Shown here: positions 11,066 to 36,607 of the stretch, piece after piece
Numbering within the stretch: the first letter of the stretch is position 1
How the letters are laid out: every line of letters begins with the position of its first letter
Origin: Rhodothermales bacterium
GTDB lineage: Bacteria; Bacteroidota; Rhodothermia; Rhodothermales; JANQRZ01
NCBI GenBank assembly: GCA_965215165.1
Contig: CBDCCX010000006.1
Span: 524,181 to 588,180, forward strand
DNA length: 64,000 nucleotides
Reading direction: 5' to 3'
The notes under the pieces: generated by a model
What the model saw: the letters and a program-made list of their open reading frames with translations, nothing else
The model's database searches: none
What the model was told of the DNA's origin: nothing
Program-made: the position numbers and the translations under genes

Positions 11066-11115
11066 TTGACAACGACGGATCGAATCCGTATCATCGTACA
11101 TCGTAGATATACGAT
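11066..11115 (+). promoter_or_regulatory. Sigma70-type promoter and putative ArsR operator
   Basis: TTGACA (11066-11071), 17 bp, TATCAT (11089-11094); inverted repeat ATCGTA-GATA-TACGAT (11100-11115) plus an extra ATCGTA half-site at 11093-11098. Confidence 0.75.
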
Positions 11116-11122
11116 AATCCGA

Positions 11123-11470
11123 ATGCCCACAGCCACGCCCGGCCCGTTCTCGCGCGCCGACCTCGCCCTCGCGGCGCAGCTCAAGGCGCTCGCCCACCCG
11201 GCCCGCCTCGCCATCCTCCGCACGCTCGCCGAGCGGACGACCTGCCTCTGCGGCGACCTCGTCGAGGTCCTCCCGCTGGCGCAGGCTACCGTCTCGCAGC
11301 ACCTGCGGGCGCTGCGCGAGGCCGGGCTGATCCGGGGCGAGACCGATGGCCCGCGCTCGTGCTACTGCCTCGACCCGGACGCGCTCCGGCGTGTCCACGA
11401 GGCGGTGGAAGCGCTCTTCGGCGGGCTGGACTGCTCGTGCGACGGCTGCTGCGGCTCTCCATCCAACTAA
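11123..11470 (+). CDS. arsR: ArsR/SmtB family metalloregulator
   Basis: LKALAHPARLAIL, CLCGDLVEVLPLAQATVSQHLRALREAGLI; Cys-rich tail CSCDGCC; leads the aquaporin-arsC operon. Confidence 0.92.
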   Translation: MPTATPGPFSRADLALAAQLKALAHPARLAILRTLAERTTCLCGDLVEVLPLAQATVSQHLRALREAGLIRGETDGPRSCYCLDPDALRRVHEAVEALFGGLDCSCDGCCGSPSN

Positions 11471-11484
11471 ACACGAGGTGTGTC

Positions 11485-11553
11485 ATGAACACGCTCCATG
11501 CTTGCTGCGACTGCGATTGCGGCGGCGACGGTTGCTGCTGCTGTGGCTGCTAG
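11485..11553 (+). CDS. Putative 22-aa Cys-rich micropeptide (metallothionein-like)
   Basis: MNTLHACCDCDCGGDGCCCCGC* (9 Cys); GAGGTG at 11475-11480; fills the gap between arsR and the aquaporin. Confidence 0.6.
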   Translation: MNTLHACCDCDCGGDGCCCCGC

Positions 11554-12226
11554 CGAACCGCCGCTCAAGAACCCCCGCCGGGCGCTGATCGCCGAGGGCG
11601 TTGGCACCTTCGCGCTGGTCTTTGCCGGCACCGGGGCCATCGTCGTCGACGCGGCGTTCGGCGGGGTGCTTACGCACGTCGGGGTCGCCCTCACGTTCGG
11701 CCTCGTCGTGATGGCCGTGATCTACGCCGTCGGCGAGGTCTCGGGCGCGCACATCAACCCGGCGGTCACGGTCGGATTCTGGCTGGCGGGGCGGTTCCCC
11801 GGCGGGTACGTCTTGCCCTACGCCCTCGCGCAGACGGCGGGTGCACTCGGTGCGAGTGGGCTGCTGTGGCTGCTCTTCGCCGGACCCGAGACCCTCGGCG
11901 GGACCTACCCGGCCGGTCCGCTCGGGCAGAGCCTCGCGCTGGAGCTCGTGCTCACGTTCTTCCTCGTGTTCGTCATCCTGTGCGTCGCCGTCGGCGCGAA
12001 GGAGCAGGGGCTGATGGCGGGCATCGCCATCGGCGGGACGGTCGCGCTCGAGGCGCTGGTCGGCGGCCCGGTCAGCGGGGCCTCGATGAACCCGGCCCGC
12101 TCGCTCGCGCCCGCACTCGTGGCGGGGGACCTGACGGCGCAGTGGCTCTACGTCGTCGGCCCGCTCGTCGGCGCGGCCCTCGCGGTGGCGGTCTACTTCA
12201 GCGTCTACGGACGCGCTCGCTCCTAA
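11543..12226 (+). CDS. MIP family aquaporin/aquaglyceroporin (ars-associated, AqpS-like)
   Basis: SGAHINPAVT and GASMNPARS NPA motifs, six TM segments; GTG 11543 preferred over ATG 11498 (start uncertain). Confidence 0.9.
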   Translation: MAASEPPLKNPRRALIAEGVGTFALVFAGTGAIVVDAAFGGVLTHVGVALTFGLVVMAVIYAVGEVSGAHINPAVTVGFWLAGRFPGGYVLPYALAQTAGALGASGLLWLLFAGPETLGGTYPAGPLGQSLALELVLTFFLVFVILCVAVGAKEQGLMAGIAIGGTVALEALVGGPVSGASMNPARSLAPALVAGDLTAQWLYVVGPLVGAALAVAVYFSVYGRARS

Positions 12227-12238
12227 CTCCATCGAACC

Positions 12239-12691
12239 ATGCGTACTTCCGAAGCTCCCCCGACCCGTATCCTGGTGCTCTGCACCGGCAACAGCTGCCG
12301 CAGTCAGATGATGGAGGGCTGGCTCCGCCACTTCGCGGGGCCACGCGTCGAGGTCGCGAGCGCCGGGGTCGAGACGCACGGCGTCAACCCGCGCGCGGTC
12401 GCGGTGATGCGCGAGGCCGGGATCGACCTCTCCGGGCACACCTCGAACCACATCGACGAGTATCGGGAGCAGAGGTTCGACGTGGTGATCACCGTGTGCG
12501 ACTCGGCGCGCGAGCGGTGCCCGTGGTTCCCGGCCGAGGCCGAGCGCCTCCACCGCAGCTTCCTCGACCCGGCGCAGACCACCGGCACCGAAGAGGAAAT
12601 CCTCGCCGCCTTCCGCGCCGTCCGCGACGACATCCGCGCGTGGGCTGAGGGATTCGTGGTCGAGCGGACGGGAGGCCCGGTGGGGCGTTAA
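12239..12691 (+). CDS. arsC: Arsenate reductase, LMW-PTPase (thioredoxin-coupled) type
   Basis: P-loop LCTGNSCRSQM plus VITVC and CPWFP redox cysteines. Confidence 0.93.
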   Translation: MRTSEAPPTRILVLCTGNSCRSQMMEGWLRHFAGPRVEVASAGVETHGVNPRAVAVMREAGIDLSGHTSNHIDEYREQRFDVVITVCDSARERCPWFPAEAERLHRSFLDPAQTTGTEEEILAAFRAVRDDIRAWAEGFVVERTGGPVGR

Positions 12692-32862: not shown

Positions 32863-32920
32863 GGCGTGTTGTGTGCTCCGCCTCGCGGGAGTACCTAGTC
32901 TCACGCACCACGTTTCACGA
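32859..32920. repeat. Heptamer-periodic inverted-arm element (GTG/CAC type) between convergent genes
   Basis: GTGAGGC GTGTTGT GTGCTCC, spacer, CTCACGC ACCACGT TTCACGA. Confidence 0.6.
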
Positions 32921-35900
32921 CCCGCCGTTGCGCTGCTGGAGGAGGTCGAAGTAGCGCTTGATCATCTCCTGGTAGTCCGGCGCGTAGCCGCTCTCGAGCG
33001 CGCGGATCAGGTCGCGCCGGAGGCGGTCGACCTCCTCGGTCTCGGGGAGCGCGTCCGGCGTGTCGGGCGGGCGGTCCTGGCCGGTCTGGCTCTCGCGCTC
33101 GCGCTTCTTGCCGCGCTGGTTGATCGACTCCCGCGCCTCCAGGAGCCGGGTGAGGATGTTCTCCTGGCGCTCGCGCAGCTCGCGGTCGATCTGGCCGCTC
33201 TCTAGGCGGCGGGCGGCCTCCTCCATCTGCTCGGCGATGCGCTGGAGCTGGCTCTTGCCCTGCCCGTCGAGCGCCGGGTTCTGGGACATCTCCTCAAGCT
33301 GCTGGCGAAGGGCCTCCTGCTGCTGGCGGAGCTGCTGCATCCGGCCCTGCTGGTCTTGGGAGAGGCGCTGGCCCTGGGCGTCGTTGAGCATCTGCTGAAT
33401 CTGCTGATTCATCTGCTGCTGCTGGCCGGACATCTGCTGGAGCTGCTGCATCATCTGCTGCATCGACGGCGAGCCGCTGCCCTGGCCGGAGCTGGGGTTC
33501 TGCATCTGGTCCATCAGGTCCGAGAGCAGGAGGGCGAGGTCGTTCAGGCTCGTCATCGACGCCTTCTGGTGGCCGGCGGCCTGGGGCACGCGCCGCTCGG
33601 CGAGCTCCTCGACCGACGCGCCCATCTCGCGGAGCGCCTCGCCGGTGCGGCGCTGGATCTCGACGTCCATCTGCGGGATCTCGCGGGCGAGGCTGCGGAG
33701 CGAGTCGCTGACGGTCGCGAGGCCGGCCGAGAGCTCGACCTGCTGCGCGGCGTTCGGGCGGATGGTCGGGCTGTCCGACGGTTGGCCGGCGGTCTCGGCG
33801 CGGAGCGACTCCTGCTCGTAGGAGAGCGTCAGCACGTCGTCGAGCGCGCGGCGGAGGCCGGCGAGGTTGGCCTGCTGCTGCTGGCCCGACATCTGCTGCT
33901 GCATCTGCTGCATCTGCTCGGCCATCTGCTGCATCTGCTGCTGCATCTGCTGCTGGCCCTGCTGCGCGTCCTGGAGCTCGTTCTGCCGCATCTGCTCGGA
34001 GTTCTGCTGCTGCTGCTGCTGCATCTGCTGCATCTGCTCGGCCGCGTCCTGCATCTGCTCGGCGGCGTCCTCCGCGCTCTTCATGCCCTCTAGCTGCTCC
34101 TGCATCTCGCGCATCATCTCCTCGAGCGCCTCGGCCTCCTGGCGGGCCTGGTCCTGCTGCTCAGCTAAGCGGTCCTGCTCGGCCTGCGACTCCTCGGCGC
34201 TGAGCTCGCCGTTCTCCTGCTGCTGCTCCAGCTCCTCGGTCTGCTCCTGCAAGGCGCGCTCCTGCTCGGCCAGGGCCTCGGCGCGCTTCGCCGCCTCGTC
34301 GAGCTTCTGGGCGACCTGCATCTTCTCCAACAGCTCCAGCGCCCGCTCGATCCGCTCGCGGAACTGCTCCTCGTTGAACTCGAACTCCTCCATCGCCTCC
34401 ATCATCTGGGGCAGGTCGAGGTTCTCCATCGCCTCCTGCAATTTCTGCAGCGCCTCGCGCATCTCGGGCGTGGCGATCTCCTCCATCACGCGCTGCATCT
34501 CTTGGTACTGCCGCAGCGTCTCCTCGCTCACCAAGTCGTTCTCCTGCATCTGCTCCAGCAGCTCCTGCATCTGCTCTGCGCCCTGCTCGACCTGCTCCTC
34601 GAGCTGCTGCTGGCGCTCCTGCAGGTTCTGGAGCTGGCGCTGGTCCTCCCAGTCGGCGTCCTGCTTGCGGCGCAGCTCGTCGCGCAGCTCCTCGAACTGC
34701 TCGCGCGTCTCGGCCTCGTCGCGGAGCAGCTCCTCGAGTCCCTCCTCGGTGCCGTCCTGCGCGTCGTCGAGCTGCTCGTACTGCTCGGCGAGCGACGGGA
34801 AGCGGAGCGTGAACGTCGGGGTCCGGGCCGATTTGTAGCCGGCCACGGCGTCGTTGTCCCAGACTTGCAGGTAGTATTCCACCACATCGCCGGGCGCGAG
34901 GCCGGGGGCGACGGAGCGGAGGAACCACTCGTGCGCTACGTCCTGGTCCAGCAAGCGCGGCTGCACGGAGAGGTCGAGCGATTCGAAGTCGGCCTCGGCG
35001 GCGTCGGTCCCAGGCTCGCCTGCGACGCGCCAGTAGAGCCGGAGCCGGGCGAAGCCGAAGTCGTCGGTGACGCGGGCGGCGACGCGGGTCTGGAGCGCCT
35101 CGGTCAGGTCCACGTCCGCGCCCGGCGCGAGCAGGCTGATCTGGGGCGGCGCGTCGGAGAGGAGCTGGAGCGTGTAGGCGATGGGGTCGGCGTTCTCGGT
35201 GCCGTTCGCGCCGTGCAGACGCAGGCGGTAGCTCCCCTCGCGGCGGAGCCGGAAGGAGCCGGTCGCGGCCGTGCCGTCGAGGGTGAGCGGGACGGCCTCG
35301 CCGTCGTCGAAGACGACGAAGGCCGAGTCGACCGGCGCGCCGCCGACCTCGGCCTCGACCGAGACGGTCGTCCCCGGCAGCCCGGTCACGTCGCCGACGT
35401 TGGGGGCGAGGCGCTGCGGGGCGAGGCGCGTGTAGCGCGGCGGCGTCGCCGTGATGCGGAGCGCCTGGACCGCCGGCCGCACCACGACCGTCGCCGTAAA
35501 CCAATCGGTCTCGACCCCCGAGGCCTCGACGCGGTAGCGGAGCGACTCGCGGAGGTTCGTCGCCGTGTGGCGGAAGGTGCCCGACGAGTCGGCGAGCAGG
35601 CGGACGGCGGTCGTGCGGTCCTCGCCGGGCCGGCCGAGCCAGAGCGTGGCCTCGCGCGGCAGCGCCCGGCCCCGCGCCCGGACCTCGACGGTGAGGTCGC
35701 TGCCCCGGACGATCTCCGCGTCGCCCGGCGCGACGAGCAGGCTGAACGGCGCGGGCGGCGCGAAGGTCTCGGTCGGGGAGAAGAGGCGGTGGACGGCCCC
35801 GGTGAACGCCGCCGGCGCGAGCAGCCCGAAGAGCGCCAGGCCCAGGATGGGCACCGCCGCGACCGGCGCGGTCCGCCGGGCCGGGCCGAGGTCCTCGACC

Positions 35901-36349
35901 CGTTCGAACGGCACCGGCTCGATCTCGCGCCCGAGCATCTGCACCGCGCCGTCGAGCAGCGGAGCCGGGGCGTCGGAGGCGCGCCCGTCGGCCAGGTCGA
36001 GGAGGTTCGTCAGGCGGTCCGAGACCTCGGGGAAGCGCCGCCCGATGCGCGCGGCGAGGGCTTGGTCGCCGAGGCCGGGGAGCACCCCGAAGTAGACCAG
36101 CAGCGGCCGGACCACGAAGACGCCGACGAGGCCGAGCGCGGCGAGCAGGAAGGCGACGTAGAACAGCAGCCGCGTGGCCGTCCCCATCCACAGCCCCGCC
36201 TCGGCGGCGGCCCCGATCCCGAGCGCGGCGGCGAGCACGCCGAGCGTGAGCGCCGCGCCGAAGAGCAGGTCGGCGGTCAGCACGCGGCGGCGCGCGCGGG
36301 CGAGGCGGGCGCGCAAGGCGTCGAGAAGCTGTCGGCTCTGCTCACCCAT
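32915..36349 (-). CDS. DUF4175 family membrane-anchored protein with Gln/Glu-rich coiled coil
   Basis: N-terminal TM helices, ISRRFPEVSDRL-like segment, Ig-like region (YYLQVWDND), long Q/E/M-rich helical tail ending GYAPDYQEMIKRYF. Confidence 0.82.
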   Translation of the reverse strand: MGEQSRQLLDALRARLARARRRVLTADLLFGAALTLGVLAAALGIGAAAEAGLWMGTATRLLFYVAFLLAALGLVGVFVVRPLLVYFGVLPGLGDQALAARIGRRFPEVSDRLTNLLDLADGRASDAPAPLLDGAVQMLGREIEPVPFERVEDLGPARRTAPVAAVPILGLALFGLLAPAAFTGAVHRLFSPTETFAPPAPFSLLVAPGDAEIVRGSDLTVEVRARGRALPREATLWLGRPGEDRTTAVRLLADSSGTFRHTATNLRESLRYRVEASGVETDWFTATVVVRPAVQALRITATPPRYTRLAPQRLAPNVGDVTGLPGTTVSVEAEVGGAPVDSAFVVFDDGEAVPLTLDGTAATGSFRLRREGSYRLRLHGANGTENADPIAYTLQLLSDAPPQISLLAPGADVDLTEALQTRVAARVTDDFGFARLRLYWRVAGEPGTDAAEADFESLDLSVQPRLLDQDVAHEWFLRSVAPGLAPGDVVEYYLQVWDNDAVAGYKSARTPTFTLRFPSLAEQYEQLDDAQDGTEEGLEELLRDEAETREQFEELRDELRRKQDADWEDQRQLQNLQERQQQLEEQVEQGAEQMQELLEQMQENDLVSEETLRQYQEMQRVMEEIATPEMREALQKLQEAMENLDLPQMMEAMEEFEFNEEQFRERIERALELLEKMQVAQKLDEAAKRAEALAEQERALQEQTEELEQQQENGELSAEESQAEQDRLAEQQDQARQEAEALEEMMREMQEQLEGMKSAEDAAEQMQDAAEQMQQMQQQQQQNSEQMRQNELQDAQQGQQQMQQQMQQMAEQMQQMQQQMSGQQQQANLAGLRRALDDVLTLSYEQESLRAETAGQPSDSPTIRPNAAQQVELSAGLATVSDSLRSLAREIPQMDVEIQRRTGEALREMGASVEELAERRVPQAAGHQKASMTSLNDLALLLSDLMDQMQNPSSGQGSGSPSMQQMMQQLQQMSGQQQQMNQQIQQMLNDAQGQRLSQDQQGRMQQLRQQQEALRQQLEEMSQNPALDGQGKSQLQRIAEQMEEAARRLESGQIDRELRERQENILTRLLEARESINQRGKKRERESQTGQDRPPDTPDALPETEEVDRLRRDLIRALESGYAPDYQEMIKRYFDLLQQRNGGS

Positions 36350-36351
36350 GC

Positions 36352-36389
36352 GAGGGTCGGGAGGTCGAGGGGTCGGAGGTCGGGGCGTC
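36352..36389. repeat. Five 7-8-nt G-rich...GTC tandem units just upstream of the DUF4175 start
   Basis: GAGGGTC GGGAGGTC GAGGGGTC GGAGGTC GGGGCGTC. Confidence 0.6.
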
Positions 36390-36607
36390 GAACATACCAC
36401 CGCGCGCGGCGGAGGATTCAGAACGCGAGGCGAGACGGGAGATTGTCTCGGGGCGATTCGAAGTGCGCCTGGCTCGGCCCCGATTCGGTTCTCGGTAGAT
36501 TCCATCCTCCCTCAGACCTCGGTGTGGCCGCCCCCCGTTGCCCCGACGCGCACAATTCTTGTAGCGCGGCGCGGTTGTTCCGCTTTCCACCGCTCACCTC
36601 CTCGTTC

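Follow-up and report, generated by a model that had tools for sequence, protein, structure and literature searches.

A probable cysteine-rich micropeptide gene behind arsR in Rhodothermales and its possible role in arsenic sequestration

Inspection of a 64,000-nucleotide stretch of the genome of a Rhodothermales bacterium (GenBank assembly GCA_965215165.1, contig CBDCCX010000006.1, positions 524,181 to 588,180; the window in what follows) revealed a short open reading frame (sORF) between arsR and the gene of a NIP-like aquaporin. The frame, on the plus strand at 11485..11553, runs from an ATG at 11485 through 22 codons to a TAG at 11551-11553 and encodes the peptide MNTLHACCDCDCGGDGCCCCGC, nine residues of which are cysteines (41% Cys). 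An initial annotation of the window had proposed this reading, and its coordinates and translation were confirmed in the sequence. Comparison with relatives indicates that the 22-codon frame is very probably a real gene, and that its product is probably a thiolate sponge of metallothionein type, taking up As(III) or other soft metal(loid)s and made when the operon is released from repression by ArsR. We infer from these comparisons that the frame is translated and induced by arsenite and that its peptide binds metal, in the ratio given below. Gene callers would hide such a frame by starting the aquaporin at an ATG at 11498, on top of the micropeptide.

Conservation and coding signal of the sORF

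A search along the ArsR clade, in metagenome contigs, in the genome collection and among the relatives of the window, yielded 13 distinct Cys-rich sORFs, that of the window included, which encode 20-42 amino acids with 25-49% Cys. All belong to Rhodothermales and stand behind one clade of ArsR proteins (67-87% identical), and in all 13 loci the sORF lies 14-60 nucleotides past the arsR stop codon. A lack of Cys conservation in relatives had been named in the initial annotation as a finding that would speak against the gene; instead, 12 further relatives keep a Cys-rich sORF in the same spot. The sORF is present in six of ten genomes of the window's family as well as in metagenome contigs, and one related metagenome-assembled genome (MAG) is labelled Rubricoccaceae. 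The sORF is absent from all 30 genomes that represent the order's other families and from ~190 loci with more distant ArsRs, and a scan of genome contigs for the operator pattern described below returned no further members. Syntenic loci of the same genus (recX-arsR-...-arsC-choice-anchor protein) have no aquaporin, and there the sORF, preceded by GAGGTA, lies ~30 nucleotides past arsR. Aquaporin orthologs of other Rhodothermales (L082-L085, 69-73% identical) form arsR-aquaporin operons without any Cys-rich ORF, and among 101 aquaporin-ortholog loci searched for an adjoining sORF, only the window itself and the unrelated locus L048 have one.

Besides that of the window, the peptides are MLKRICAAVCCRACCCCGCCCCCCCGDDGRCDCDCSECC (L102, genome G001), MLNHTQAATCDCECDCCADDCCGGNGCDCDCC (L103, G003), MLKRICAAVCGCCDEGCCGGGCGC (L105, G002), MPTLLPTRCCDCDCCDCGGDCDCDCCGDGCC (L186), MDTMMLDACTCDCGCCDDTCCGGDCDCGCC (L266), MDTLMHPTCCDCCDCGCGDECDCVGCC (L267), MNATLNGCCCPDCGGGCCGD (L269), MSTLTMDPCCCPDCGGGCCGD (L271, G006), MSYQPLSVCCCCGDCCGDGCGCCDCCGC (L281, G007), MNTIQKSCCCPDCGCCGECCGDDSCCRD (L332), MNTPVPDACCCDSDCGCGGGCGGD (L333) and the 42-residue MPTPLPHPAPCDCGCGCDCCDDGCCGGGGCDCGCDCGCGCAC (L334). 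All 13 sORFs begin with ATG and share an N-terminus of the type M-[NDPS]-T. Since the members also have C-G-G-[DG] as a recurring motif in their middle, the peptides are homologous and not just alike in composition. Their cores consist of ~50% Cys, 21% Gly and 18% Asp, the number of Cys per peptide ranging from 6 to 19. The residues that a single mutation of TGC would bring in (Arg, Ser, Tyr, Phe and Trp) hardly occur in the cores; a single Tyr occurs among the 13 peptides, and His is confined to the N-termini. When the 13-codon Cys core of L269 is set against that of L271, 10 codons are identical, three differ synonymously and none non-synonymously, while the spacer and the N-terminus diverge. 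The synonymous switches among the sORFs are TGC/TGT, GGC/GGT and GAC/GAT, and their Gly codons are GGC, GGT and GGA only, GGG accounting for 26% of Gly codons genome-wide. Constraint on the Cys core at the protein level is visible in these alignments.

The genome of the window comprises 3.67 Mb with 69.6% G+C, a median G+C content at third codon positions (GC3) of ~0.92 in long ORFs, and 0.6% Cys in its proteome. A density of at least nine Cys per 22 residues is reached by four of ~86,000 stop-to-stop segments genome-wide, the micropeptide frame being among the four; the other three are 247-501 amino acids long and Arg/Ser/Ile-rich or repeat-type, unlike short intergenic ORFs. One of these three was inspected. 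With 13 Cys per 22 residues it is richer in Cys than any other poly-Cys frame in the genome, and it is found at 33867-34838 of the window on the plus strand, inside a gene on the minus strand (32915-36505); it is the antisense frame of a 1196-residue protein with long Gln/Met/Glu repeats (QQMQQ...) and provides a negative control for poly-Cys ORFs. A strict scan of 271 loci, for ORFs of 12-60 amino acids with at least six Cys and a Cys content of 25% or more, returned the arsR-adjacent sORFs and two matches in alternative frames within genes, and nothing else.

The same bases can also be read, +1 to the sORF, as an Ala-rich extension of the aquaporin frame (11498-11545). Synonymous codon choice favours the Cys frame, with a codon adaptation index (CAI) of 0.55 and a GC3 of 0.77, over the aquaporin-frame reading, with a CAI of 0.21 and a GC3 of 0.50, which places it in the 3rd percentile of gene starts; seven of its Ala codons are GCT, although GCT stands at 4.7% genome-wide. 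A comparison of the frames by whole-codon likelihood was uninformative, Cys being rare (0.6%), and only the synonymous measures CAI and GC3 discriminated.

The spacer between arsR and the sORF measures 14 nucleotides in the window and includes a Shine-Dalgarno (SD) box, GAGGTG (11475..11480, plus strand), the GAGG core of which ends six nucleotides before the ATG. A GAGG box stands a few nucleotides before the ATG in 12 of the 13 family members, and its usual form, GAGGTA, is exactly complementary to the 16S tail UACCUC; the 16S 3' end of the window's genome (C6:3140342) keeps the anti-SD CCUCC, its tail reading ...GGAUUACCUCCUA. That the sORF carries an SD in a genome otherwise lacking them had been pointed out from the window alone, and the genome bears this out: SD cores occur at 13% of 361 well-defined starts versus 17% of random positions, with no genome-wide enrichment. 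As in Bacteroidota, SD-led initiation in the window's genome seems to be restricted to few genes, the sORF among them.

Outside Rhodothermales, the ars operon of a Fimbriimonadaceae MAG (Armatimonadota; L048/L302) consists of arsR, a sORF encoding MIVVNQVPVCDCGTCCDCSNCNCC (24 amino acids, 8 Cys), and arsC. The sORF lies on the minus strand at 395..321 of L048 behind an SD GGAG, its start overlaps the end of arsR in a TAG-ATG junction, and the aquaporin gene is divergent. The nearest Fimbriimonadaceae relatives (L303 and L304) are without it, and its ATG coincides with the ATG of their arsC; it looks like a recent sORF that arose independently by insertion into the 5' end of arsC.

The arsR operon, its signals and its downstream genes

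Transcription of arsR and the sORF would start from a sigma-70-type promoter, TTGACA-17-TATCAT, at 11066..11094 (plus strand), which matches 11 of 12 consensus positions (0.1 expected in shuffles). Directly past its -10 box, at 11100..11115 (plus strand), lies the palindromic operator ATCGTA-GATA-TACGAT, the presumed site of ArsR. The promoter TTGACA-17-TATCAT is found upstream of arsR in every family locus examined, and the palindrome ATCGTA-N4-TACGAT, to which ArsR is expected to bind, is perfect in most of the 13 loci, one base off in three, and at a constant distance from the -10 box; arsR starts 5-7 nucleotides past it in most family loci. The same -10 box and ATCGTA-N4-TACGAT palindrome precede arsR-arsM operons in L321 and L328 (Ignavibacteria/Melioribacteraceae MAGs), and in L318, a Rhodothermales MAG, the operator stands before a PP2C-type phosphatase gene with no arsR behind it.

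The arsR gene (11123..11470, plus strand; stop TAA 11468-11470) encodes a 115-residue ArsR/SmtB metalloregulator, recognised by NCBIfam NF033788 (76 bits, cutoff 55) and Pfam HTH_5/HTH_20, with a Cys-rich tail DCSCDGCCGSPSN that contains the CSCDGCC end read in the initial annotation; the protein ends ...GGLDCSCDGCCGSPSN. Close homologs end ...DC[SR]C..CCG at their stop codon. The ArsR of the window is four residues longer (SPSN; 11456-11470), the usual TGA after GGC having been lost where GGCTGATCC... now reads GGCTCTCCATCC..., and this extension runs to a TAA within the otherwise homologous spacer. The 5' untranslated region of arsR (window 11100-11125) is very short, A-rich and without an SD, the operator ending seven nucleotides before the ATG, and arsR is probably translated as a near-leaderless mRNA.

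In every relative except L334, a strong GC-rich hairpin with a stem of 11-16 bp follows 10-25 nucleotides past the sORF stop. Given the spacing of 14-60 nucleotides and a hairpin that occurs only after the sORF, arsR and the sORF appear to be co-transcribed, and the conserved unit, as it emerges from the alignments, is a sigma-70 promoter, an ATCGTA-N4-TACGAT operator, an arsR without SD, a sORF with SD, and a GC-rich hairpin. The invariant neighbour of the sORF is arsR (13 of 13 loci), and what follows is variable. Past the hairpin lies arsC in five loci (L102, L105, L266, L281 and L332), an unrelated co-oriented gene some hundred nucleotides away in L103, L186 and L267, and only a convergent gene in L269/270, L271 and L333; in these last three, since nothing but the hairpin and a convergent gene follows, arsR and the sORF make up the entire operon, and it can have no cargo other than the peptide. 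The window and L334 continue past the sORF with the NIP-like aquaporin and then arsC, bringing the loci with arsC downstream to 7 of 13 and those with an aquaporin to 2 of 13. In L102 (3620-3700; G001, same genus as the window), about five tandem copies of the 17-nucleotide unit CGCCTCTCTTTACGCCT stand between the hairpin and arsC, in the place of the window's aquaporin.

The aquaporin gene of the window (11543..12226, plus strand; Pfam MIP, 1e-49) encodes an AqpN-type, NIP-like channel, a probable conduit for As(OH)3, and the arsC gene behind it (12239..12691, plus strand; TIGR02691, 4.8e-46; Pfam LMWPc) a thioredoxin-coupled arsenate reductase of the low-molecular-weight protein tyrosine phosphatase type. 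The closest solved relative of the channel is plant NIP2;1 (1e-38), ahead of AqpZ, and it fits the NIP-like bacterial channels in ars operons that have been reported as arsenite conduits. Two candidate starts, ATG 11498 and GTG 11543, lie upstream of the MIP domain, PF00230 beginning at residue 27 of the ORF that starts at 11498. The GTG is placed within the end of the sORF, eight nucleotides before its stop codon (GTGGCTGCTAG), so that the two genes would overlap by 11 nucleotides. The aquaporin of L334, 79% identical and the closest pair found, likewise starts with GTG and has the N-terminus M-A-A-S, its GTG lying six nucleotides past the sORF stop. Because M-A-A-S is conserved in L334 and the codon usage of 11498-11542 is poor, GTG 11543 is the probable start. 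The overlap claimed in the initial annotation is real and its start codon is backed by L334; a start at 11498, which had been listed as evidence against the micropeptide, is disfavoured. Since the aquaporin start overlaps the sORF stop, translation of the channel in the window is likely coupled to that of the sORF by termination and reinitiation.

Other explanations were considered, and two of them were rejected. A programmed +1 frameshift, or a sequencing error, fusing the peptide to the aquaporin is at odds with the 11 relatives that have the sORF without an aquaporin; UGC-UAG is moreover a poor shift site, and the aquaporin of L334 has its own GTG past the sORF stop. The aquaporins of L082/L083, which start MNQ/MNT, raised the idea that the sORF ATG ('MNT') is the ancestral aquaporin start, later separated by an insertion; this was ruled out, as the sORF family conserves M-[NDPS]-T at its own N-terminus and the M-A-A-S of the aquaporin is conserved with L334. 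That the aquaporin borrowed a start codon from the sORF after an insertion is weakened by the same GTG-MAAS start outside the sORF in L334. In L334 (1568-1700), the 42-residue sORF and the aquaporin are in the same frame, with TAG CCC CAG between them before the GTG, and readthrough of the TAG would place the Cys-rich peptide on the N-terminus of the channel. Several ars-linked NIP-like aquaporins of Planctomycetota and Armatimonadota (L003, L020, L064 and L048) carry Cys-rich tails (such as ...VACRCSRPAGCCDGRCSPESP and ...ELEGCC), a hint that thiol motifs beside the channel are useful in their own right.

Possible functions of the peptide

Module logic, a metallothionein-type composition and the arsenic-gene context lead us to favour a thiolate buffer for As(III) or other soft metal(loid)s. 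The peptides, at 20-42 amino acids, lie within the size range of metallothioneins (<~10 kDa) and have the corresponding composition, with 25-49% Cys against a classical minimum of 25%, CxC, CC and CxxC motifs, and almost no aromatic residues. A link to arsenic is provided by an arsC or aquaporin gene at 7 of the 13 loci and by the operator shared with arsR-arsM in Ignavibacteria. The invariant repressor partner, the strong ribosome-binding site of the sORF versus none on arsR, and the three peptide-only loci together suggest an operon built of a repressor and its cargo.

In the mechanism we propose, the 22-codon frame would be the translated second cistron of an autoregulated arsR operon. ArsR would sit on ATCGTA-N4-TACGAT just downstream of the -10 box, and binding of As(III) or another thiophilic metal(loid) to the Cys-rich repressor would derepress the operon. 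The SD-less arsR would be translated sparingly and the sORF, with its rare strong SD, heavily. The resulting Cys/Gly/Asp peptide would act as a minimal metallothionein, its nine thiolates holding up to three As(III), and would both buffer free arsenite and feed back on ArsR. In the window and in L334, where the start of the NIP-like channel overlaps or directly follows the sORF stop, synthesis of the channel would probably be coupled to synthesis of the peptide.

The initial annotation had offered three functions for its hidden gene. The gene itself and the GTG overlap stand, and of the functions the first, a chelator, agrees best with the comparative data. A shuttle to the channel is ruled out as the core role of the family, 11 of the 13 members having no aquaporin, although it could be a local add-on in the window and L334. 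A Cys-sensing leader is unlikely in view of the three loci with only a hairpin and a convergent gene, and no antiterminator structure was seen.

Several observations weigh against the buffer. The sequence and length of the sORF change fast (22 to 42 amino acids) and have a slippage-prone look, which would also fit weak constraint beyond the Cys codons; the SD of L334 is degraded (ACGGACCC); six of the 13 loci have no adjoining arsenic gene; and a free 22-residue peptide might be unstable in vivo. No match to a recognised metallothionein family was obtained when 11 members were searched against Pfam at E up to 10, which gave one chance match, and a profile of the family returned no match among 1.84 billion representative proteins. 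The peptides likewise had no match among PDB chains, nor that of the window in NCBIfam, and an exact look-up of eight of the fourteen sequences in a catalogue of 15 billion proteins found none of the eight.

A leader or attenuator is an unlikely alternative to the chelator. Here the run of Cys codons would stall ribosomes at Cys-tRNA or thiol depletion (for example by arsenite). Such stalling would affect either the hairpin's action as a terminator or how the arsC or aquaporin behind it is translated, and the peptide as such would not matter. Mycobacterial polycysteine sORFs that act as cysteine-responsive attenuators (10.1101/834739) set a precedent, a hairpin stands between the sORF and a co-oriented gene in eight loci (arsC in five of them), and the two loci with an aquaporin, the window and L334, have its start overlapping the sORF stop or next to it. 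Against this, L269/270, L271 and L333 have no co-oriented downstream gene to control, and the sORF comes second in its operon and has an SD, unlike a leaderless first ORF, and is not followed by genes of cysteine metabolism. Thermodynamic predictions also argue against it: the minimum-free-energy folds of nine relatives keep the terminator hairpin intact with no common antiterminator, and shuffled sequences fold as well as the window region does (z = +0.6). Finally, protein-level conservation extends to the N-terminus and the Gly/Asp spacers. An RNA element as such was rejected: Rfam gave nothing beyond one hit at E = 0.57, and the window fold did not surpass shuffles.

Also improbable, to much the same degree, is a peptide that serves as a regulatory partner of ArsR, handing As(III) to the repressor or stripping it off and so setting the induction threshold or resetting the repressor. 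In favour of such a partner, arsR is the sole invariant neighbour, the two genes being co-cistronic in 13 of 13 loci, and the Cys motif of the peptide resembles the ArsR tail DCxCxGCC (in the window, DCSCDGCCG versus DCDCGGDGCC, with 7 of 9 codons identical). The strong SD of the sORF versus none on arsR, however, suggests a large excess of peptide, which fits a buffer better, and a Cys number that varies from 6 to 19 is not expected of a specific partner. The proposal overlaps with the chelator, since any sponge feeds back on the sensor, and the two are inseparable on present data.

The likeness to the arsR tail, the low complexity and the highly variable length would also suit a non-functional, near-neutral and slippage-prone TGC/GGC/GAC tract derived from a duplicated arsR 3' tail and open by chance, and poly-Cys frames can indeed arise by chance in alternative frames of the window's genome. 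We consider such a tract a poor explanation: the ATG and SD persist across ArsR divergence to 67% identity, even in operons with no further cistron besides arsR; the core varies only synonymously, with one-step TGC neighbours almost absent; and nothing comparable between genes turned up elsewhere among the 271 loci of the strict scan. Least credible of all is another role altogether, be it in buffering thiol/redox state, in supplying ArsC with electrons or thiols, or as a precursor to an exported product or to one resembling ribosomally synthesised and post-translationally modified peptides. The high thiol content would suit redox chemistry and arsC often lies nearby, but the sORF is not accompanied by conserved enzymes for modification, by transporters or by a signal peptide, ArsC is of the thioredoxin-coupled type (TIGR02691), and six loci are without arsC.

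Returning to the chelator, if its role is as proposed, bacterial ars regulons would gain sequestration as a further arm, in the form of a conserved, gene-encoded Cys micropeptide under ArsR control, and the sORF products would be among the shortest metallothionein-like products known. With 22 residues, the peptide of the window costs little to synthesise, and a small tag or biosorbent for As, Sb and Cd could be made of it. More speculatively, and with considerable doubt, ribosomally made Cys/Gly/Asp micropeptides of 20-42 amino acids may be arsenite-inducible 'phytochelatin substitutes' and a regular but invisible component of ArsR regulons, in Rhodothermales and independently in L048, which in the window would be coupled to the NIP-like channel such that captured As(III) is released beside the channel for exit.

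Comparison with known systems

Bacterial arsenic resistance is commonly described in terms of the sensor ArsR, the reductase ArsC, efflux through ArsB, Acr3 or a channel, the chaperone ArsD, and methylation, while chelation of arsenic by Cys-rich peptides is credited to eukaryotes, in the form of phytochelatins and metallothioneins. The literature that we searched contained no description of ArsR-linked Cys micropeptides. ArsD is a thioredoxin-fold arsenic metallochaperone of ~120 residues (Cys12/13/18) that partners ArsA and feeds efflux, and phytochelatins are short As(III) chelators, (gamma-Glu-Cys)n-Gly, that are made enzymatically and are not gene-encoded. Both protect the cell, as the sORF product would, by thiol-based binding of As(III); the peptide of the window has 22 residues, and its operon contains neither arsA nor arsD.

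Mycobacterial polycysteine sORFs are leaderless first ORFs upstream of cysteine-metabolism genes, where an RNA duplex hides the next ribosome-binding site (10.1101/834739). They resemble the frames described here in being unannotated, short, rich in runs of Cys codons and located inside operons. In the attenuators, however, the peptide is dispensable, whereas in the window's family the sORF follows arsR as a second cistron, has an SD, can end the operon and is conserved at the protein level. A co-oriented downstream gene is missing in L269/270, L271 and L333, and no alternative RNA structure linking the sORF to a following gene is predicted.

Among the smallest metallothioneins are the fungal copper metallothioneins, such as that of Neurospora crassa with ~25 residues. 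The mycobacterial MymT has 53 (PMC11672702). Like the sORF peptides, these smallest metallothioneins are very short, of a Cys/Gly/Ser/Asp type with CxC and CC motifs, and free of aromatic residues; unlike them, they bind Cu(I), and no sequence relationship is detectable. To our knowledge, none of these proteins, whether fungal or MymT, is part of an ars operon or encoded behind arsR.

The nearest parallel in regulation is offered by the cyanobacterial SmtB-SmtA, BxmR-BmtA and AzuR-NmtA pairs, in which a repressor of the ArsR/SmtB family controls a bacterial metallothionein (PMC8790569). There, as proposed here, a repressor and a palindromic operator control an adjacent gene for a small Cys-rich chelator that feeds back on the sensor, and the sORF family has the same elements, an adjoining ArsR/SmtB-family repressor gene and an operator palindrome at the promoter driving the Cys-rich gene. 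SmtA and BmtA are proteins of ~55 residues with a zinc-finger-like fold and His ligands, belong to Pfam PF02069 and are encoded divergently from the repressor, whereas the sORF peptides have 20-42 residues, no His ligands and no Pfam match, and are encoded co-cistronically downstream of arsR in an arsenic rather than a Zn/Cd context. The concept of a repressor paired with a Cys-rich chelator is known; what is new is this sORF family, with peptides of this size class, a co-cistronic layout and an arsenic setting.

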